Of a stretch of DNA of 64,000 nt, positions 54,454 to 64,000 are shown piece after piece (within the stretch, counting starts at the first letter, position 1; the number at the start of each line of letters is the position of its first letter). The translations under genes were made by a program, and so were the position numbers. The stretch covers positions 64,001-128,000 of IMG/VR virus record IMGVR_UViG_3300025154_000052, one strand, 5' to 3'. Below the pieces are notes generated by a model. That model did not search any database. It saw nothing but the letters and a program-made list of their open reading frames with translations, and had not been told where the DNA came from. Source of the DNA: a virus.

Positions 54454-55457
54454 CACGCCCTACTCGCTTCATTGAACTCTGTGGGGCCTCTCTCTGCACA
54501 ACTCTCCGGTTGGGATGGGAGGTCCACAAGATCACCATTCCGATGTGGGGGAGTAAGTTCAACTTCTTGGACGCGCTTCTTCCTGCTATGCGGGTTACGC
54601 CGGGGATGGGCGCTGACTCTTATCTGGCCGTTGAACCGGGACCGTATGGCGAGTTCTGGCAGGTTGTAAAAAACCACGACGACAGGGCAGCACTGGTATC
54701 GTGCCTCAAGTCGTGGCAGGACACCGATCCTTCTACTCTATGGGAGAGAATTGCAAAGTCGCCCGTTCCAGATGGGATTCTCGGACGTGTCTGCCACTGG
54801 TCCACACTGCAATTCTGGGGCTACGGTCGGAAAATCATTTATCCCGTGTGTGTCGCAGGCACTGCTCGAGATGGCCTTATCCAGACACATACTGGACACG
54901 CCCGGCGCTGGAAGACGCACGGCATGGATCAGACGGCGCCCTACAACCGGGAATACCGGGAGAAACGCGGTGAAGGGGTAGGCCGGCGCAACGTCCGTCT
55001 TCCAGATCTGATCGAGCGCATTGAAGCACTTCCGGAACTGTCATCACTGACTGTACTCCATTGCTCAGCGCTGGAAGTAGATCCTACCGTGTGGGGCGGG
55101 CCCGGTGTGCTGGTCCTGATTGACCCACCCTACGAGGGGACTGAGGGCTATGGAGAGTACGTCTTCTCGCGGGCGGACGTCGTCAGGGTGGCTCGAGTCT
55201 GGGCCACTACTGGCGCTCGAGTCGTCATCTGCGAGGCTGAACCGATCACCATGGGGACTGGCTGGCAGTATGTCGAGATCACTCAATACCTGAAGGGCAG
55301 AGGGCGGACAAACGGCTGCCGTGAATGGCTCACGATGAACTTCGCTCCCGGCGACTTACCGACACACCCAGCCGATAATCGTTCGCGATCAGATACCAGA
55401 CGACGCCGAACACAGCCAGCGTGCTCAACGCCTGAAGCACGTATCCGGCTGCTTTGA
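54450..55457 (+). CDS. divergent Dam/D12-like DNA adenine methyltransferase
   Basis: PMWGSKF N-terminal motif, LIDPPYEGT; start at ATG 54450 coupled to DUF488 gene. Confidence 0.65.
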   Translation: MTRPTRFIELCGASLCTTLRLGWEVHKITIPMWGSKFNFLDALLPAMRVTPGMGADSYLAVEPGPYGEFWQVVKNHDDRAALVSCLKSWQDTDPSTLWERIAKSPVPDGILGRVCHWSTLQFWGYGRKIIYPVCVAGTARDGLIQTHTGHARRWKTHGMDQTAPYNREYREKRGEGVGRRNVRLPDLIERIEALPELSSLTVLHCSALEVDPTVWGGPGVLVLIDPPYEGTEGYGEYVFSRADVVRVARVWATTGARVVICEAEPITMGTGWQYVEITQYLKGRGRTNGCREWLTMNFAPGDLPTHPADNRSRSDTRRRRTQPACSTPEARIRLL

Positions 55458-55656
55458 CCGGATCGACGAACAAACTGAACAGCGCCGGCCCGATCAGGTT
55501 CTTCTGTGCTTCAGGAACGCGCTCCTTCAGCAGATCGAAAAACAGTGGGCGGTGCTCGGCACATTCGGCCAGGGACAAGCCACAAGGGCAGGTAACGGAC
55601 ACGAGTTCAATCTTCACTTCACTGGGACGCATAGTCTCCTCCAAGGATTTGGTGGC

Positions 55657-56568
55657 ATGGTAGCAGCGATTACGGTTAGTGGCAAAAATGGGCTTGAGCC
55701 GCGGCCGTTCCTTCGGTGGGCGGGTGGTAAGGACCAACTACTCGAGCCGATCCTGAGTCTCGTCCCGAAGCGGTTCAACGCCTACCATGAGCCATTCATC
55801 GGTGGAGGTGCTGTCTACTTCGCCATGGTCCGGGAGAGACGGATCAAAGGAGCTGCTTATCTGTCCGACCTGAACCATAGGCTGGTCACCTGCTATCGAA
55901 TGGTCCGTAGCCGACCACAAGATGTGATCGATGAACTCGAGCGACTCATGCAGGAGCGAACGCTGGAGGGCTATCTGCGAGCTCGTACAGAGTTCAATCG
56001 TGGAGTACGCGAGAGACGGTCAGGTGTGTTTGGGCTGTTCACCGACTCAACGCCACCCAGCCCGATAAGGCTTGCGGCCCTGTTCGTCTTCCTGAACCGG
56101 ATATGCTTCAACGGGCTGTTCCGGGAGAACCAGAAGGGAGAGTTCAACGTCAGCTTCGATCCATCCAAGGTGACGGCTGATGTGGTGCGTGGAGATGTCC
56201 TCCTGGCCGCGTCATCGTCGCTCCAGGGTGCTGAAATACTCGAGGCCGACTTCCTTTCCAGTACATCTCTGGCCCGAGCCGGTGACTTCATCTTCTTCGA
56301 CCCACCCTACGTTCCTGTCTCTGTGACCGCCTCGTTCGACCAGTACACGGCTGATGGATTCGGAATGGATCACCAGGCAAGTCTGGCTGAAGCATGCCAA
56401 GACCTGGCGAAGCGCTCTATCAACTTCCTCCTATGCAACAGCGCTCACCCTGCCGTGCTCGAGTTGTACAAGGGCTTTGAGATCTCCCACGTCCGCGCCA
56501 TCCGTTCCGTCAACTGCAAGGGCACCGGGCGTGGAGCCGTCGACGAAGTCCTGATCAGGAATTATTGA
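55657..56568 (+). CDS. dam: Dam-family DNA adenine methyltransferase
   Basis: FLRWAGGK, YHEPFIGGGAV, FNGLFREN, FFDPPY. Confidence 0.92.
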   Translation: MVAAITVSGKNGLEPRPFLRWAGGKDQLLEPILSLVPKRFNAYHEPFIGGGAVYFAMVRERRIKGAAYLSDLNHRLVTCYRMVRSRPQDVIDELERLMQERTLEGYLRARTEFNRGVRERRSGVFGLFTDSTPPSPIRLAALFVFLNRICFNGLFRENQKGEFNVSFDPSKVTADVVRGDVLLAASSSLQGAEILEADFLSSTSLARAGDFIFFDPPYVPVSVTASFDQYTADGFGMDHQASLAEACQDLAKRSINFLLCNSAHPAVLELYKGFEISHVRAIRSVNCKGTGRGAVDEVLIRNY

Positions 56569-56582
56569 CCTAAACACAGAAA

Positions 56583-56626
56583 CATTAAAATAATAGTTGA
56601 CAGCTACGCTAACGAACATTATAAAT
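56583..56626 (+). promoter_or_regulatory. CATTAAAAT-type promoter
   Basis: CATTAAAAT-N5-TTGACA-N17-TATAAA(T). Confidence 0.75.
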
Positions 56627-56976
56627 TGAGTCATTGAATGTTCATCACACACTAGGAGCAAACATCATGTTGACTCAATCCGGTCTTCCCGTCGTTGGTT
56701 CCACCTGGATTCATGGCGCCATGTCCGTTCACGTCGTTGAGGTTGCCCAGTGCGTTCGCCCCATCGTGCGCGTCGTCACCGACGACGACGTCAAGGGGAC
56801 CATCTCTCTGGACAACTTCAGCAGGCACTTCCACCCGGCTGGGTCGAGTCTGTCCGAGCGCCTGTCCGTCGCACTCCACACGATCGCTGCTGCCCTGATT
56901 CCCGCTCTCTCCTGATTTTGTGATTCCCGCCCTTACAGGCTATCCTTTGCTCATACCCTTCAATGATGGAGATCGT

Positions 56977-57450
56977 ATGAGCAACACGCCTTTGGAAATA
57001 GCTATATCTGAGATCGGAATGCAGGAGGCTCCGGACGGCTCAAATCGTACCAAGTACGGAGAATGGTACGGGGAGACTGCTGGGCAGAACTGGGATGGCC
57101 AGCCCTGGTGCGGCATGTTCGTCTCGTGGTGTTTTGACGAGGCGGGCACACCCCTTCCTGAACTTCAAGCCCCTGGATATAACGGCTTTGCTTCCGTCGC
57201 CATCGGCCTCGAGGCGTTTCGCCAGCGCGGGTGGTTGGTCGACGACCCGGAACCCGGATACATCGCCTTCATGGATGTCCGGGGGAATGGCAAGCCCAAT
57301 CATGTGGGTATCGTCGAGATGTCCAACTCATGCTGTGTCGTCACGGTGGAGGGCAACACCGCGCCTCCCAGCGGTGGTAAATCTTCGCATGTCGCGCGTC
57401 GTCTCCGCAAGAGAGCGCTCTGCCTCGGGTTCGGTCGACCGAACCTTTAA
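56977..57450 (+). CDS. CHAP-domain peptidoglycan hydrolase (endolysin-like)
   Basis: N.TKYGEWYG, PWCGMFVSWC, HVGIVE, TVEGNT. Confidence 0.88.
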   Translation: MSNTPLEIAISEIGMQEAPDGSNRTKYGEWYGETAGQNWDGQPWCGMFVSWCFDEAGTPLPELQAPGYNGFASVAIGLEAFRQRGWLVDDPEPGYIAFMDVRGNGKPNHVGIVEMSNSCCVVTVEGNTAPPSGGKSSHVARRLRKRALCLGFGRPNL

Positions 57451-57457
57451 GACGAAT

Positions 57458-57501
57458 CATTAAAATAGTTGTTGACTGTATATCTAGGGTCATGGTACAG
57501 T
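57458..57501 (+). promoter_or_regulatory. CATTAAAAT-type promoter driving the RNA cluster
   Basis: CATTAAAAT-N5-TTGACT-N18-TACAGT. Confidence 0.75.
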
Positions 57502-57506
57502 CTGGT

Positions 57507-57620
57507 AAAGACTGGGCGGTTGATCCAGTGACTGAGTTGAGTGGCGTTCCTGCTGAGTTGTACATCCGGAGTGGAAGCAGCGCTGTCCTGAGTGGAACCA
57601 GTACCGTCAGCCCAGTCTTT
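57507..57620 (+). ncRNA. candidate structured ncRNA (11-bp closing stem)
   Basis: aaagactgggc (57507-57517) pairs with gcccagtcttt (57610-57620); starts at the predicted TSS. Confidence 0.55.
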
Positions 57621-57831
57621 TATTCTTTCGGCACCCGGGTGAAACTCCCGGCAGAGTAGCGCTCCCGACTCTCTGTGCATGAGTCATCGGGAGGCGGTAT
57701 GGTAACCGGCGCCCTGTAACCTCCGGGGCAAAGCAACCGACCTCAGATTGAGTGGTGGCGCACTCTCTGAGCCCATGCGGGCGTGAAGGCTCGACGAGAC
57801 AGAGCCAGGCAGCCGGGAAAGACGAGCATAC

Positions 57832-58491
57832 GGGGCTGTAGTTCAGTGGGGGAACGTCTGGCCTGCAGTATACAAGACGTTTGTATGTGGAGCGCACATA
57901 GCCTGACAGAGATTGGCACCAGAGGATAGCGGTTCAAGCAGAAAAGTACTTCAGTGGCGCAAGAAGAGTCAGAGTACATCACATCTGATAGCTATGATGG
58001 CTACTTCAGGAAACTGTATGCTAAGGTGTGTGCTCAATGTGGAGCAACGTTTTATTTGCCAAGGCACATACTTAATGGTGCAAAGTTTTGTAGCAAAAAG
58101 TGCCATGCTAAGACGAAGCAACGCCGCGAGACTCTCACATGCTCACAATGTGGAAAGCAATTCGTCAAACTAACAGGCAAGAAAAAGAATTCAAGACATG
58201 GTTTTTACTTTTGTACCAGAGCATGCAAGGATTTGGCTCAGAGAATTGGCGGGATTGAGGAAATACGGCCAGGACAATACAAAAACGGAAAGAGTTATTA
58301 CAGGGAACGTGCACTCCGGGAATACGGGCAGAAATGTTGTCAATGTGGATACGACAAGTATTCTGCAATGTTAGACGTTGATCATATCGATAATAACCGT
58401 GAACATAATTCACTGGAAAATCTGCAAGTATTATGCGTCTGGTGCCATGCTTTAAAAACGAGAAAGACGCCAGTTCACGACCGCTAGTCCA
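57832..58491 (+). pseudogene. tRNA(Ala-like) gene interrupted in the anticodon loop and in the T-loop
   Basis: GGGGCTG-TA-GTTC..GAAC D-arm; TCTGG/CCAGA anticodon stem 57 nt apart; AGCGG-TTCA at 57928 and CCGCT-AGTCC at 58481. Confidence 0.6.
57954..58487 (+). CDS. HNH endonuclease with N-terminal Zn fingers
   Basis: CCQCG...DVDHIDNNREHNSLENLQVLCVWCH; AT-rich relative to flanks. Confidence 0.9.
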   Translation: MAQEESEYITSDSYDGYFRKLYAKVCAQCGATFYLPRHILNGAKFCSKKCHAKTKQRRETLTCSQCGKQFVKLTGKKKNSRHGFYFCTRACKDLAQRIGGIEEIRPGQYKNGKSYYRERALREYGQKCCQCGYDKYSAMLDVDHIDNNREHNSLENLQVLCVWCHALKTRKTPVHDR

Positions 58492-58691
58492 AAATGGCGC
58501 CGACTCCATTTGAATCCTCACTGGCTCGGCTTTCCGCCCTTCGTCAGTGCCGTTGGCTTGACCAACGGAGACATGCACTAGGCTTAAGGCTGCGTGCGGC
58601 CGCATGTCTGCAAATTACCGCAGATAGGCACTATGGACTGGCCTCCTTGTGTTGAATGTTAGCCTGGCGGGCTGGAAAAGGCCCGCGTTAT

Positions 58692-58775
58692 GGGATCGTA
58701 GCTCAATCGGATAGAGCAACTACACGGCGCGCCAAGGTGTAGCAAGTGCCAGTTCGATCCTGGCCGATTCCACCA
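58692..58775 (+). tRNA. tRNA-like RNA with non-canonical anticodon arm (Arg-like body, encoded CCA)
   Basis: GGGATCG/CGATTCC acceptor, GCTC-AATCGGATA-GAGC D-arm, GCCAG-TTCGATC-CTGGC T-arm, ACCA; CTACAC/GTGTAG stem with 11-nt loop GGCGCGCCAAG. Confidence 0.75.
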
Positions 58776-59062
58776 GAGACGGTCATCCAAGACTCCCACG
58801 TCGTTAAATACTTGGAGTCTTCGGCATGTGCGTGAGGCATTTACGGGCATGCCTTCAGGAATCCCGAACCTGAAGTATTAGCGCAGCCCGAAGGGGACGG
58901 ACAGGGGAAGCTGCTCGTTCGATCCGAGCGCCGATGTAAGGTGTCTGAAACTGCCTTATCTGTGTAGGGCGTGACCCGGCACGTTAACCGGGAGTCTTTC
59001 ATGAGGCGCCCATACTACGGGCTTAATGGCGCTGCTTGTTGAACAGCGCCGCCTTATCTTTC

Positions 59063-59135
59063 ACCGCTGCAGCGTGGCTGGATCGCACGCCGGGACGCGC
59101 AACCGGAAGCCTGGGTTTGATTCTCAGCGGCGGTC
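59063..59135 (+). tRNA. degenerate tRNA-like RNA (GCG at the anticodon position, no U33)
   Basis: ACCGCTG/CGGCGGT acceptor, CTGGG-TTTGATT-CTCAG T-arm, CCGG/CCGG stem with ACGCGCA loop. Confidence 0.55.
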
Positions 59136-59141
59136 GTTAAC

Positions 59142-59660
59142 GTGAACATGGAGGCTGAAATGCAGTATCAACTTGGTGACATGGTCCAGTGGAGTAGTCA
59201 GGCTGCCGGTCATGTGAAGGTAAAGACCGGTGAAGCTCTAGCAGTCCTGCCCGCCAAGGTCGCTGTCCATAAGGTCGTCAAGCCGATATTGGCGGATGGT
59301 CAACATACCAGCGAGATACCGGGCAAGGCGCGCCCGAAGCTTTACTGGCCTCGAGTGTCGGCACTGTCTCTCGTGAGTCGTCCGGAGTTGTCGGTTGAGG
59401 AAGATGTTGATGACGAGTCGGACGTTGACTCAGTGACCCTGGCCACGTTCAAGCACAAGTCCGGCAGCAAGAAGCGAATGACCGGAACCGTGTTGACCAG
59501 CGGTGTGAGCGCTGAGACTGCCGCGTACCAATTCGCCCGCACTCACCGGATCTGTTTCAACACGAATTCCGAGGGCGATGTCTTCATCGAGATCCCCTCG
59601 TTGCACCGCAAGCCGCGTCTGTACTGTCGGCGCGGATGTCAGGTCAGTTACTCGATGTGA
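59142..59660 (+). CDS. hypothetical phage protein
   Basis: GDMVQWSSQAAG.VKVKTGE...KLYWPRVSAL pattern. Confidence 0.6.
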   Translation: MNMEAEMQYQLGDMVQWSSQAAGHVKVKTGEALAVLPAKVAVHKVVKPILADGQHTSEIPGKARPKLYWPRVSALSLVSRPELSVEEDVDDESDVDSVTLATFKHKSGSKKRMTGTVLTSGVSAETAAYQFARTHRICFNTNSEGDVFIEIPSLHRKPRLYCRRGCQVSYSM

Positions 59661-59748
59661 TCCTGTTCGATTGGCTACACGAGTCCTGCACATGCAGCCG
59701 GTAAGAGTCCGGAAGTTCAGTGCCGTTGAACACGACGGCGCTACCTTT

Positions 59749-59819
59749 GGTCCCATAGTCTAGTGGCAAGACACCGCTCTTTCACGGCGGAAGCCAGGGT
59801 TCAATTCCCTGTGGGATCA
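59749..59819 (+). tRNA. tRNA-Glu(TTC)
   Basis: Full cloverleaf; CCGCT-CT TTC AC-GGCGG; CAGGG-TTCAATT-CCCTG. Confidence 0.92.
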
Positions 59820-59824
59820 TTCAC

Positions 59825-60016
59825 ATGGAGATCGACGTGGATAAAGAAAGCGACTTCCTCAAGTCCATTCTGTTGACCAGTCCCGAGTCTGGTAAGGCAC
59901 TCCATGTCACGGATGTGAGAGGCAAAGAGGCAGGTCTTGACCATCTCGAGATCACAACCGAGTCTGACGACAAGATGGAGCGGTGGAAATACTCCATCAA
60001 GGTCGAAGAGGTCTAA
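59825..60016 (+). CDS. small acidic hypothetical protein
   Basis: 63-aa ORF between tRNAs. Confidence 0.45.
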   Translation: MEIDVDKESDFLKSILLTSPESGKALHVTDVRGKEAGLDHLEITTESDDKMERWKYSIKVEEV

Positions 60017-60017
60017 C

Positions 60018-60089
60018 GCTTCCATAGCTCAGTGGTAGAGCAGCCGGCTTTTAACCGGCAGGTCGTAGGTTCAAATCCTACTGGGGGCA
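60018..60089 (+). tRNA. tRNA-Lys(TTT)
   Basis: Full cloverleaf; GCCGG-CT TTT AA-CCGGC; GTAGG-TTCAAAT-CCTAC. Confidence 0.92.
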
Positions 60090-60106
60090 TTCCATTTTAC
60101 AGTTTC

Positions 60107-60462
60107 GGGGGCGAAATAGATTCGACGGGGGAACGGTAGATCAGGGCAGCGTGCAGAGGTGGGTCGCCTCGTTAAACAGGCTCAAAACCATAGTCGCAAA
60201 CAACACCGACTACTACGCCGACTACGACCGTCAGGCCGCTTAGTGGGCTGTTCGCCTGGTTCAGACTGCGGGGCCAGGTGGGCATAATGCCAGCAGTCAA
60301 AACCCTCGTGGAGCGCAGGACTAAACGAGGGAATATCACCTGCTAGCCCGGCAGACTGTGTGCCTGCAGATCTAGGGCGAAACTGATCAGAGCACTACGC
60401 ACGTAGACACCTTGAGTCGAGTTCTTTCGGACCCGATGGGCGGTACATCGGCGCCTCCACCA
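60107..60462 (+). ncRNA. ssrA: tmRNA, tag (A)ANNTDYYADYDRQAA*
   Basis: GGGGGCG/CGCCTCC-ACCA acceptor with G3.U70, ATTCGAC, TAGTC-GCA AAC resume site, tag ending AA-stop. Confidence 0.92.
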
Positions 60463-60484
60463 TTTCTGGCAAGCCCAGTTGACA

Positions 60485-60525
60485 AAAAGGGGCGATTCTA
60501 TCGCAGAGTCGCCCCTTTTTCTTTT
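60485..60525. terminator. bidirectional intrinsic terminator
   Basis: aaaaaggggcgattct...agagtcgccccttttt. Confidence 0.85.
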
Positions 60526-60684
60526 CTTCTACCAAACTCATCCATTTGACCCCTGAACGCTGCCCGATGGCATCAGATTTGCGCATGCCCACACGCTGGG
60601 GATAATAGAGTTAGGCACTCACGACGCGTGTTGATTTTTGTCAACACGCCGCATTTGGGATACTGTTGAGACAGGAGACGGGAC

Positions 60685-60996
60685 ATGACACCGGGAACCA
60701 CGGTGGGCTTGGGTGAGGTCATCAAGACCTTTGCAAACTCGAGTCCAAACTACATCCCCTACATCGTGATTCTGATCTCCATCATCCTGGGGGTGCGGGC
60801 AGTCTGGGCACGGTTTGCCCCGCATATCTCAAAGACAATGGAACTCTTGAACAGATCCCTTGAGCACTCCCTGCAGATGGGCATGGAGGAAAGGAGACTG
60901 CTTCAGGAGGTGAAAGAGGAGATCCGTCGTGAGAAATCAACTCGCAAGCGTGGTGGGCGCGTATCAGGACCCCGGGGATCCGACGACAGCGAGTGA
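60685..60996 (+). CDS. small membrane protein, holin-like
   Basis: One strong TM helix (YIPYIVILISIILGVRAVW), basic tail; near lysin and terminase. Confidence 0.5.
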   Translation: MTPGTTVGLGEVIKTFANSSPNYIPYIVILISIILGVRAVWARFAPHISKTMELLNRSLEHSLQMGMEERRLLQEVKEEIRREKSTRKRGGRVSGPRGSDDSE

Positions 60997-61143
60997 TGTT
61001 GCATTCGAGATCCACCGGCACCGTCACAGTCGGGCGATCAAGCGGTATGCCAAGATTGCCGGACTGTACCTGGCTATCAATGTCTTGCGGGGGTCGGTTC
61101 TGAGTTATTCACTGATGGTAGGCATGGGGGCGATGCTTACCAC

Positions 61144-62940
61144 ATGCACGATCGCGGATGCCCCGGCGCAGAAAGCGGAATGGAAACACGTTGGGAAAAG
61201 ATAGCAAAGCTTCAGGAACTCGAGAAGATCAGCGCAGTCGCGCGGGCCAGAAAGGTCAAGCAGGCGCGACATGACACCAACGTCTTCGTCGAGTATTGCT
61301 TTTCCGACTCCCGGCGCAAGAACCCGGACGGAACCCCGCATCAGGTCCGCCAGTCGCAAGTTCATCGCGATTTCCAGTCCGCCATAGATACCCAGGAATA
61401 CATCTTTGGCGAACTTCCTCGAGACACCGGCAAGACGACACAGTGTGTGGCCAGAGTGTTGTTCTGGCTGGGCAATAACCCGGATGAACTCATCAAGATC
61501 ATCTGCGTGAGTGATGCGGAAGCCAAGAAGCGTGTCCGCGAGATCACAGAGCACATTCTGCACAACCCACGAGTGCATGAAGTCTTCCCCCACCTGAAGC
61601 CAGCGAACATGGCAGGGTGGACTCAACACGCAATCTATTGCCAGCGTAAGATCATCTCGAAGGACGCCAGCGTCGAAGCTTACGGCCTGGACAGCTCTGG
61701 TATTGGTGGTCGTGCCACACGACTGCTATTCGATGACGTGGTCAATCCCAAATCCGTCCGCTCCGAGGCTATGCGTGAGGCGACAAAGGAGACCTTCTTC
61801 GGTGTCTGGCTCCCGATGGTCGAAGAGGACGACGACGGGGAAGCAGCGGGCTCACCAGTCAACGACGACGGGGAGGAGACCGACTTCAACTCTCTTCCCG
61901 ACACGCTACCGGACAGACGCGCTCGAGGCGGACAACTGGCCGAGTTACCTGAACGAGAATGCGCAGACGGGGCCAAAGTCGTCTGGATCGGGACGCCATG
62001 GCACAAAGCGGACCTCCATAGCGAGTTGAAGGCCAAGGCCCCTGAGATGGGCTGGTTTCTGTTCAGTCGTCCGGTGGGTGGCGAGTGGGCCAGGCAGCAG
62101 GCAGAAGCACGCGGCGAGGTCGCTGATGAGTTCAGTCCGGTGTGGCCTGAACAATGGGGACGAGTACGGCTTCAGAAACGCTTCGCGCGCCTCCCTCGCA
62201 TCCACTTCGCTCGAGCCTACTTGCTTCAGCCGATGTCTGACGATGATCGGATCTGGGATACAACGAAATTCCAGTTTACGACATGGGAAGTTATCGAAAA
62301 CGTGGAGATGGCGGGGGCGGTCGGAGCGTGGGACTTCGCCTTCACAGAGAAGAGCCGGAACGACCGTAACGGCTATGTATCGGTGGCTCTGGGCGAAGAT
62401 CTGAATATCTACGTCTTCAGGTCTTCAGCCTTCCGTGGAGGGCTCCAGAAGACGGCCAGGGCGATTGTCGACTGGGCCATCCGCGATCAACTCCAACACG
62501 TCGGTATGGAGGAGGTGGCGGCCCAGACATGGATGCGCCAGTACGTGAAAGAGATGGCGCTGCTGCCGCTCCGTCCGCTCCGTCCCCAGAAGGTGGGTGG
62601 GGACAAGATCAGCCGAGCCATCCGCACTCAGCCATACGTGGACCAGTGCCGAGTCTACTTTCTTCCCGGGACAGAAGATCTACAGGCCGAGATGGGGGAC
62701 TTCCCGTTCGGTGTCCATGACGACCTCGTTGACGCCTTCGTCTACTGCATCATCCTACTCATCGAATACTACCTGATGAACGAGGACATGCTCGAGGAAG
62801 GTGTACGATCACATGACACGTATGACGACGGGGCGCTACGAGTCCGAAGCATGGGCTTACAGATGACGACAGACAGCGATGATGTGGATGTGGAGTACGA
62901 GCGACCAGTGAGCGTTTTCGATCAGGTGAGGTGGATGTAA
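61144..62940 (+). CDS. terL: terminase large subunit
   Basis: PRDTGKTT Walker A, LLFDDVV Walker B, VWIGTPWH, AWDFA, HDDLVDAF nuclease motif. Confidence 0.9.
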   Translation: MHDRGCPGAESGMETRWEKIAKLQELEKISAVARARKVKQARHDTNVFVEYCFSDSRRKNPDGTPHQVRQSQVHRDFQSAIDTQEYIFGELPRDTGKTTQCVARVLFWLGNNPDELIKIICVSDAEAKKRVREITEHILHNPRVHEVFPHLKPANMAGWTQHAIYCQRKIISKDASVEAYGLDSSGIGGRATRLLFDDVVNPKSVRSEAMREATKETFFGVWLPMVEEDDDGEAAGSPVNDDGEETDFNSLPDTLPDRRARGGQLAELPERECADGAKVVWIGTPWHKADLHSELKAKAPEMGWFLFSRPVGGEWARQQAEARGEVADEFSPVWPEQWGRVRLQKRFARLPRIHFARAYLLQPMSDDDRIWDTTKFQFTTWEVIENVEMAGAVGAWDFAFTEKSRNDRNGYVSVALGEDLNIYVFRSSAFRGGLQKTARAIVDWAIRDQLQHVGMEEVAAQTWMRQYVKEMALLPLRPLRPQKVGGDKISRAIRTQPYVDQCRVYFLPGTEDLQAEMGDFPFGVHDDLVDAFVYCIILLIEYYLMNEDMLEEGVRSHDTYDDGALRVRSMGLQMTTDSDDVDVEYERPVSVFDQVRWM

Positions 62941-64000
62941 TGGAAGAGCAGGGATATAGCGGCTGGGAAATCAAGGTGTGCAGTCTGGGTGGGGCAGAGG
63001 ACCAACCGCAAGAGCGATGGGAAGACGCGATCGACAATGCTGATCGGGAGATCACCGCGAAAGATGCGGGAAACGCCACTGGGGACGCGTGGATCGACCG
63101 GCATGCACCGGCTCGAGCCAGCGTCCAGAAGTCAAGCATCCAGAAAAGTGACGACGGCGGGCCGCAGGACCTGGGCCGTATCGAGCCCGACATCATTCGG
63201 GTGGATGAGAACAAGCTCAACACGCTCTTCTCCGGTGTGGGCGTCATCCCGCCAGCGATCAGTTTTGCCTGGCTGGGCTTCATCGTTCGCAACTCCCCAT
63301 CCATCCGTCAGAACATCGAGGCGTACAATCACGGTATCGACGCGCACGGATACCAGCTCATGCCACGGGTGGATCTGGCATCTGAAAAGGTGGACGACGA
63401 GATCCGCGCCGTCATCTACATGGAGCGACTTCACGAGGCACGGGTGAAGCACTGGACGGATGGGGGAGACCCGCCCGAAGTGCAGTTGGAGATCGACGAC
63501 TCTGAGGTAGACGCCAGGAAGAAGCGGCTCAAACTCGAGATGGCGGCCGAGCAGGCACGGTTGCGGCTGTTCTTCGACAATCCGAATCCCAAGGAGACCC
63601 TGATCCGGATTCGCCGGCGCCTTCGCTGGGACCTGGAGACCTACGGCAACGGCTTCCTGGCCATCAATCGTAATCCATGGGGTGAGCCGCTTTCTCTGTG
63701 GTGGGTTCCCGCTCGCACGACTCGAGCCGTGAAGTTGTCTCCCGAGGACATGAACGTCGAGGTCAGCGACCGCGTGAAGATCAGCCCGGTTTCTTACGAC
63801 AAGGTGAAGGTAATCCGGTCGTTCCGGCGATACGTCCAGGGCATCGGTGAAGGAGACACACCGGCCGTGCCGAATGTGTACGGCGGCGGCATGATCTTCT
63901 TCAAGGAGATAGGCGACCCACGGCTGATCGGCAATCGCACCGGCCAGACGTACAAGACGAAGGCTGAACTGGACAAGGCGATCAAGATGGGGACCGAGAC
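62940..64000 (+). CDS. portal protein (5' part, runs off window)
   Basis: Open from ATG 62940 to the window end; RQNIEAYN.GIDAHGY, DLETYGNGFLAINRN..GEP.SLWWVP as in PBSX-type portals; directly after terL. Confidence 0.8.
   Translation, partial: MEEQGYSGWEIKVCSLGGAEDQPQERWEDAIDNADREITAKDAGNATGDAWIDRHAPARASVQKSSIQKSDDGGPQDLGRIEPDIIRVDENKLNTLFSGVGVIPPAISFAWLGFIVRNSPSIRQNIEAYNHGIDAHGYQLMPRVDLASEKVDDEIRAVIYMERLHEARVKHWTDGGDPPEVQLEIDDSEVDARKKRLKLEMAAEQARLRLFFDNPNPKETLIRIRRRLRWDLETYGNGFLAINRNPWGEPLSLWWVPARTTRAVKLSPEDMNVEVSDRVKISPVSYDKVKVIRSFRRYVQGIGEGDTPAVPNVYGGGMIFFKEIGDPRLIGNRTGQTYKTKAELDKAIKMGTE

Follow-up and report, generated by a model that had tools for sequence, protein, structure and literature searches.

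A probable insertion of a free-standing HNH homing endonuclease gene into a tRNA-Ala-derived gene of a groundwater phage

Background

The locus analysed here carries what looks like a tRNA gene in pieces, with an open reading frame for an HNH nuclease lying between them. This raises the question whether the pieces still belong together, being spliced to a tRNA or at least pairing with each other at the RNA level, or whether the nuclease gene has broken a tRNA gene for good. A preliminary description had proposed a homing endonuclease that targets the T loop, possibly combined with a splicing route that restores the RNA, or else a tRNA scaffold that frames the HNH mRNA. Our analysis suggests a simpler history: a free-standing HNH homing endonuclease gene has probably inserted into a gene derived from tRNA-Ala(UGC) and killed it, and nothing is spliced.

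The window, by which we mean the whole stretch of DNA analysed (64,000 nucleotides), was taken from an IMG/VR virus record of groundwater origin (137.6 kb, estimated to be 87% complete), of which it covers bases 64001-128000.

Results

The RNA island

The locus is part of an RNA island, a 3.6-kb stretch nearly free of ORFs between a CHAP-domain gene (56920-57450) and the gene of the large terminase (61144-62940). At the head of the island there is a promoter-like site (57472-57501, plus strand; TTGACT-18-TACAGT with a TG), which is a consensus match only. The following 320 or so nucleotides in front of the tRNA relic (57508-57831) contain no ORF and did not match any Rfam model at E<=10. The HNH gene, which is accompanied by no intron, sits between tRNA-like genes and upstream of a tRNA-Glu (59748-59820), a tRNA-Lys (60018-60089), and a tmRNA (60107-60462). 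The tmRNA was not reported by ARAGORN but is matched over its full length by Rfam with 132 bits, and it places the island in a bacterial context. It is followed by a strong terminator-like hairpin, consisting of a 16-bp stem and a T run (60484-60520, plus strand), where the transcript of the island likely ends. Within this RNA-island operon the nuclease gene is probably a passenger that is co-transcribed.

Downstream of the nuclease gene there is a second tRNA-Ala-like gene (58692-58775, plus strand), which was missed by ARAGORN but is found by the Rfam tRNA model (46.1 bits) and by a tRNA-Ala HMM (E 2e-4). It has G3.U70, A73, and an encoded CCA (ACCA end), but its anticodon stem has 6 bp and its loop 11 nt, and this anticodon arm is unable to decode. 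With this gene the layout is tRNA-Ala / HNH / tRNA-Ala, as in relatives. Two further tRNA-shaped sequences follow, both with a good acceptor and T arm and a non-standard middle. The one at 58816-58937 has the T arm GCTCG-TTCGATC-CGAGC, and the one at 59063-59134 has the T arm CTGGG-TTTGATT-CTCAG and a 9-nt loop on a CCGG stem. In total, the island comprises two real tRNAs, the tmRNA, and four tRNA look-alikes that do not decode. Over the whole genome ARAGORN reports tRNAs for Thr, Glu, and Lys only, and a canonical tRNA-Ala is absent from the phage record.

The tRNA-Ala-derived relic

All strings on which the preliminary description was built are present in the DNA, namely GGGGCTG to TCTGG at 57832-57861, AGCGG-TTCA at 57928-57936, and the GTTCA, CCGCT, AGTCC, and stop codon TAG of the right end. 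Its proposal that the 5' part is tRNA-Ala-like is confirmed by the tRNA-Ala HMM, which was built from 53 distinct tRNA-Ala genes adjoining homologues of the nuclease: 57832-57876 correspond to model positions 1-46 with an E-value of 3e-6, and TGC is aligned to the anticodon. Together with direct reading this identifies 57832-57868 (plus strand) as positions 1-38 of a tRNA-Ala(UGC)-derived gene, comprising the acceptor strand GGGGCTG, U8, A9, a 4-bp D arm (GTTC/GAAC, with GG in the loop), G26, the 5' strand of the anticodon stem (TCTGG), and a 7-nt anticodon loop (CCTGCAG). Positions 39-60 are found at 57919-57939 (plus strand) by direct reading, the HMM match being weak (E 0.6). They consist of CCAGA, which pairs with TCTGG, the 4-nt variable region GGAT, the T-stem 5' strand AGCGG, and the T loop TTCAAGC, which is complete and canonical and includes A58. 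The tRNA sequence therefore runs from position 1 to position 60, where it ends at 57939 and switches abruptly to the AT-rich leader and the intact low-GC ORF of the nuclease. The leader (57940-57953) stands where the 3' strands of the T stem and the acceptor stem and the discriminator, 13 nucleotides in all, are missing.

The two tRNA segments are separated by 50 nucleotides after the anticodon loop, that is after position 38 (57869-57918, plus strand). The 57-nt insert described before between TCTGG and CCAGA (57862-57918) resolves in the HMM alignment into the 7-nt anticodon loop and this 50-nt insertion. Its description as structured, with multiple hairpins, does not hold, and a stable structure is rejected, as the folding energy equals that of shuffled sequences (z +0.11). 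The insertion is unique in the genome, with no second copy, which speaks against a repeated element. It is not a recognisable relic of an older nuclease gene either, because local alignments to the 85 homologous HNH loci described below score no better than shuffles.

With C instead of U at position 33 (loop CCTGCAG) and 50 extra nucleotides after the anticodon loop, the relic should be non-decoding. A functional tRNA-Ala would be marked by U33 in a 7-nt anticodon loop and by G3.U70 in an acceptor stem of 7 bp, and this combination was not found. The Rfam tRNA model, which had been suggested as a check, does not match the relic at E<=10, and minimum-free-energy folds of the 5' part contain no cloverleaf and are no better than those of shuffles. 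It is therefore likely, as part of the explanation given above, that the tRNA-like gene was already non-decoding or has since become so, and that what remains of it is a dead relic.

The nuclease gene

The AT-rich HNH ORF of the preliminary description proved to be real. It is preceded by the 14-nt AT-rich leader (57940-57953, plus strand), so that it starts 14 nucleotides past the T loop, and extends over 177 codons (57954-58487, plus strand) from a GTG start to the stop codon TAG at 58485-58487. Its GC content is about 43%, compared to about 58% for the phage (55-62% around the locus). The drop is confined to 57940-58487, and the GC content is back at the phage level directly past the stop codon.

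The protein can be assigned to the HNH (His-Me finger) nucleases both by profile and by its fold, catalytic residues, and CxxC...CxxC zinc site. It matches PHROG 1271 "HNH endonuclease" with an E-value of 6e-21, and scores 19.8 bits with the Pfam HNH model PF01844, just below the cut-off of 21.4. All 21 residues that are invariant in 38 homologues are retained, including three Cys4 sets and the D-H...N...H catalytic residues, and the 38 sequences show little or no variation at H144, N156, H165, and C128/C131/C161/C164. The AlphaFold2 model (pLDDT 92.5) consists of two N-terminal Cys4 hairpin modules and a C-terminal beta-beta-alpha HNH domain (strands 140-144 and 157-161, helix 162-169). With this C-terminal domain Foldseek finds the Gme HNH (4h9d) and the phage GVE2 HNH (5h0m) at probabilities of 0.97-0.98, although with weak E-values. 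Based on sequence conservation and the predicted structure, the ORF is an intact 177-residue HNH homing-type endonuclease.

The right junction

At the right end of the locus, GTTCA (58473-58477), CCGCT (58481-58485), and AGTCC (58486-58490) had been taken for the 3' part of the tRNA, GTTCACGACCGCTAGTCC (58473-58490, plus strand). The stop codon of the nuclease indeed lies within this part, and CCGCT and AGTCC are present as strands that could complete the T stem and part of the acceptor stem. Alignment of the C-termini shows, however, that most of this sequence consists of conserved HNH codons, and the acceptor pairing with AGTCC is limited to 5 contiguous base pairs in a register shifted by one. 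GTTCACGACCGCTAG encodes V-H-D-R-stop, which is the conserved C-terminus of the HNH family (consensus K-T-R-[GK]-V-P-x-H-[DEK]-R); relatives end in PEHDR-NTGI (L072), HDR (P0029), or PVHER (L078, encoded by CCT GTT CAC GAG CGC). GTT-CAC are thus the V-H codons and CCGC derives from the Asp-Arg codons, and altogether 9 of the 13 nucleotides of the claimed 3' part are conserved codons. In L078 the same GTT CAC GAG CGC is present with no T loop involved, the real and separate tRNA 3' half being located 5 nucleotides further on. GTTCA therefore belongs to the nuclease gene and does not represent the target-site duplication that had been supposed. In addition, a T loop formed by joining at GTTCA would read TTCACGA and contain C58.

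Nevertheless, by simple chance a match to the upstream strands such as that of CCGCT and 5 acceptor pairs is uncommon. In the genome, 20 of 275,154 positions (7e-5 per nt) have CCGCT and then 5 or more acceptor pairs, and a short 3' remnant may be real. A fully complementary, displaced 3' end of the tRNA (CCGCT-CAGCCCC) is present nowhere in the RNA island, and this candidate was rejected. The region after the stop codon (58488-58691) gave no HMM or Rfam signal of a decayed tRNA such as those found in relatives.

tRNA genes around homologous nucleases

The family to which the nuclease belongs comprises 250 homologous proteins at E<=1e-5, many of them with PF01844 or PF13392, and is spread over unrelated phages and MAGs of Chloroflexota and Armatimonadota. 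We examined 85 homologous loci from viral contigs, metagenomes, and assemblies, and based all counts on the 63 non-identical loci with the CVWCH motif. An intact tRNA on the same strand starts within 150 nucleotides after the codons of this catalytic motif at 34 of the 63 loci. Nineteen of these downstream tRNAs are tRNA-Ala (16 UGC, 3 CGC) and four are tRNA-Pro(UGG). The stop codon of the nuclease is inside this tRNA in 26 of the 34 cases, and in seven it coincides with tRNA nucleotides 8-10. Intact tRNAs within 150 nucleotides upstream are present at 25 of the 63 loci (12 tRNA-Ala). Four MAG contigs show the same arrangement, and distant homologues adjoin tRNA genes in T5-like phages, Cronobacter phage GAP32, and an Ochrobactrum phage. 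Judged by these neighbourhoods, the clade is widespread and lives in tRNA arrays, most often next to tRNA-Ala.

Many of the loci also contain broken tRNAs. Upstream of the nuclease gene, 5' tRNA halves end at about positions 38-47 (L150, L081/L146, L125/L126, L073, L105), and just past the stop codon 3' halves start at about positions 47-53 (L075/L076, L078, L150). In two loci, L105 and L078, a tRNA-Ala gene is cleanly split across the nuclease gene. Bases 386-432 and 1097-1126 of L105 join to a perfect tRNA-Ala(UGC) with a 7/7 acceptor stem, G3.U70, and ACCA. Of the strands left stranded in L078, GGGGTCG forms 7/7 pairs with CGATTCC. The split in L105 (386-1126) leaves a 47-nt 5' part and a 30-nt 3' part with about 660 nucleotides in between, which hold the HNH gene; the ORF of this gene has no stop codon until past the 3' part and the next tRNA. 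From these arrangements it appears that the family does break tRNA genes and sometimes, but not always, brings a replacement part. The present locus differs from most relatives in that no intact tRNA overlaps the stop codon and in that the break is at 60/61 and not in the 38-48 region.

Some of the loci are unusual in other ways. In a soil metagenome contig (L074/L076; 1390-2092 and 2748 onward) the HNH homologue is flanked by an intact tRNA-Ala(UGC) on one side and a 23S rRNA gene on the other, and a 96%-identical copy of tRNA positions 47-74 starts 4 nucleotides past its stop codon. This arrangement implies that the family also invades the spacers of bacterial rRNA operons. In an Armatimonadota MAG (L158) the tRNA array beside the HNH homologue contains two long Rfam tRNA matches of 106 and 100 nucleotides (218-323 and 767-866), and these may represent additional insert-bearing tRNA genes. 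In a 183-kb phage (L002, 999-1130), two tRNA genes flank a Y RNA-like (YrlA) match, which at 55.5 bits stays under the cut-off of 69 bits.

Search for nuclease-free alleles

The preliminary description had proposed to look for the empty allele in related phages. Such an allele, of the phage or of the tRNA-like gene, was not found by any of three approaches. DNA searches of the phage collection gave no match to the phage, searches with the neighbouring CHAP and terminase genes returned distant relatives only or none, and exact-pattern scans for the tRNA-like gene gave nothing. Other contigs carrying the identical HNH protein belong to the same phage.

Discussion

Origin of the locus

The abrupt end of the tRNA sequence, the confined drop in GC content, and the tRNA habit of the nuclease family all fit the insertion of a homing endonuclease gene into a tRNA-Ala-derived gene. 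The enzyme, or a close relative encoded by a co-infecting phage, would have cut the DNA of the tRNA gene somewhere between the anticodon and the T arm, in analogy to SegB and the HNH enzymes of T5. Repair of the break would then have copied the nuclease gene into the cut. The 3' strands of the T stem and the acceptor stem might have been lost on this occasion, or the right junction might have formed at a short homology between GTT CAC GAC CGC T and the T arm. By the same analogy, the DNA of tRNA-Ala-type genes is most likely what the enzyme cuts, and it is possible that the right junction arose at microhomology between the last codons of the nuclease gene and the T arm, which would explain why these codons seem to complete the T stem. 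As no nuclease-free allele was found, we infer the insertion event and have not seen it, and the cleavage specificity and the microhomology junction belong with it in this respect. If a nuclease-free allele read AGCGG-TTCAAGC-CCGCT and then AGTCCAAAA, the 3' piece would be a true remnant and the junction would have formed via the CCGCT microhomology. The homing endonuclease proposed before for the T loop is thus retained in so far as a tRNA-derived gene is interrupted by the HNH gene, either at the T loop or past it, and the family of the nuclease is tied to tRNA genes (34 of 63 loci). A restorable tRNA finds no support, considering the shifted 5-bp acceptor, C33, and the 50-nt insertion.

The alternatives differ in the role they give to the sequence at the right end. 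It could be imagined that the resident tRNA-like gene truly ends with CCGCT-AGTCC and that the split is used at the RNA level. The pieces would pair across the 541-nt ORF to form a tRNA-like clamp, which would be recognised by RNase P and 3' processing enzymes and would frame or limit the nuclease mRNA in a kind of tRNA punctuation. A T stem of 5/5 pairs with 5 contiguous acceptor pairs at the end of an ORF is indeed uncommon by chance (the 20 sites in 275 kb), the confinement of the low GC content to the ORF would fit a clean insertion between positions 60 and 61, L105 and L078 contain truly split tRNA-Ala genes, and tRNA processing at the stop codon has been proposed as a control of SegB (PMC2330249). 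However, the nine conserved-codon nucleotides also occur without a T arm being involved, the acceptor stem of just 5 bp in a shifted register carries no CCA, and the folds of the 5' part show no cloverleaf and do not exceed shuffles, so that we regard such a clamp as unlikely. Rather unlikely is also that the nuclease arrived together with the tRNA-like gene at 58692-58775 as a replacement tRNA, by which the resident positions 1-60 were stranded upstream, the 3' completion being pure coincidence. The order of a tRNA-Ala or its 5' half, the HNH gene, and a tRNA-Ala is common in relatives (L002, L083, L087, L095, L141, L150, L073, L081/L146), and 58692-58775 does match the tRNA-Ala HMM (E 2e-4). 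But the GC content returns to the phage level right past the stop codon, and 204 nucleotides separate the ORF from this gene, compared to overlap or abutment in the relatives. Moreover, its anticodon arm cannot decode, and its T arm matches unrelated tRNAs (Thr, Gly) equally well, so that it was rejected as a specific relative of the nuclease-linked tRNA-Ala genes.

It is hardly conceivable that the twice-interrupted tRNA is restored by splicing to a working tRNA, be it by an unrecognised self-splicing element or by an endonuclease and a ligase. ARAGORN does call a tRNA in the doubly excised composite, but it does so for 7,647 of about 64,000 random 3' joins (12%) as well, and the call therefore says nothing in favour of a split tRNA. 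Two perfect excisions would still leave a product with neither U33 nor a proper acceptor stem; more precisely, the composite would have C33, C37 or the 50-nt insert, and the shifted 5-bp acceptor. Rfam searches over 55000-64000 at E<=10 gave no match to group I or group II introns, other intron families, or other known RNA families, in agreement with the earlier failure to recognise a group I core. The non-coding flanks of 14 nucleotides upstream and zero downstream of the ORF, with the stop codon inside the claimed 3' exon, leave no room for a ribozyme. No RtcB or Rnl2-type ligase was detected by model searches of the phage record; the T4 Rnl1-type model PF09511 matched neither there nor in any of 14 control genomes, so that its silence does not demonstrate the lack of such a ligase. 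The splicing route suggested at the outset is not supported, and all relatives are free-standing genes. To our knowledge, no bacterial tRNA intron is known from the T loop. Taken together, nothing in the sequence indicates that the tRNA is spliced back together. Taking the family as a whole, it seems quite improbable that tRNA halves flanking HNH genes, here or in the clean cases of L105 and L078, re-associate as RNA and then serve, after processing, to control the nuclease mRNA or are rejoined to a usable tRNA. If they did, they would represent, at a position other than the anticodon, a bacterial or phage counterpart of the split or intron-bearing tRNAs of archaea.

Significance

With an insertion of a free-standing nuclease gene as the preferred explanation, the present locus alone is one more homing endonuclease colonising a phage tRNA region, and changes little. 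The picture of the family is more useful, with its preference for tRNA-Ala, the stop codon inside the next tRNA, the recurrent scars of half tRNAs with breakpoints at about 38-53, and at least two clean splits. This pattern leads to testable predictions of cut sites and shows how tRNA genes are shuffled, duplicated, and destroyed in phage arrays. Such shuffling of tRNA genes by nucleases matters because phage tRNAs counter host defences (PMC13096335).

Comparison with known systems

Group I introns with a homing endonuclease ORF in bacterial and phage tRNA genes resemble the present locus in that a nuclease ORF is placed inside a tRNA gene. They differ in that here there is no ribozyme core, the T arm and not the anticodon loop is affected, and the non-coding flank is just 14 nucleotides long. 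Closer in kind are the HNH enzymes of the T5 tRNA region (F-Tfl type), which are also HNH nucleases in a phage tRNA gene region; according to a report from 2004, as cited in PMC2330249, T5 encodes HNH-type site-specific nucleases inside this region. Distant homologues of the present protein (29% identity) adjoin tRNA-Thr in T5-like phages such as HdH2. A link of the HdH2-type gene to the named T5 enzymes was not established, and T5 itself is not among the matches.

The best comparison is SegB of T4, a free-standing homing endonuclease of the GIY-YIG type encoded in the T4 tRNA gene cluster (PMC2330249; PMC13096335). SegB, which recognises the T-loop motif GGTTCRANTCC, cleaves tRNA genes at their 3' end, and the stop codon of segB is located at the next tRNA, so that tRNA processing clips the segB mRNA (PMC2330249). 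In T-even phages, recombination induced by SegB has been reported at stretches of microhomology that a tRNA gene shares with the segB 3' end (PMC13096335). The present nuclease is of the HNH instead of the GIY-YIG type, and its gene interrupts a tRNA-derived gene whereas segB is located between intact tRNA genes; for the cleavage of tRNA genes the enzyme described here would follow SegB by analogy. Both genes are found among phage tRNA genes, and an ORF end that meets the next tRNA is a feature of SegB and of the HNH relatives. In this sense the locus is a quite ordinary case of a behaviour already known for homing nuclease genes.
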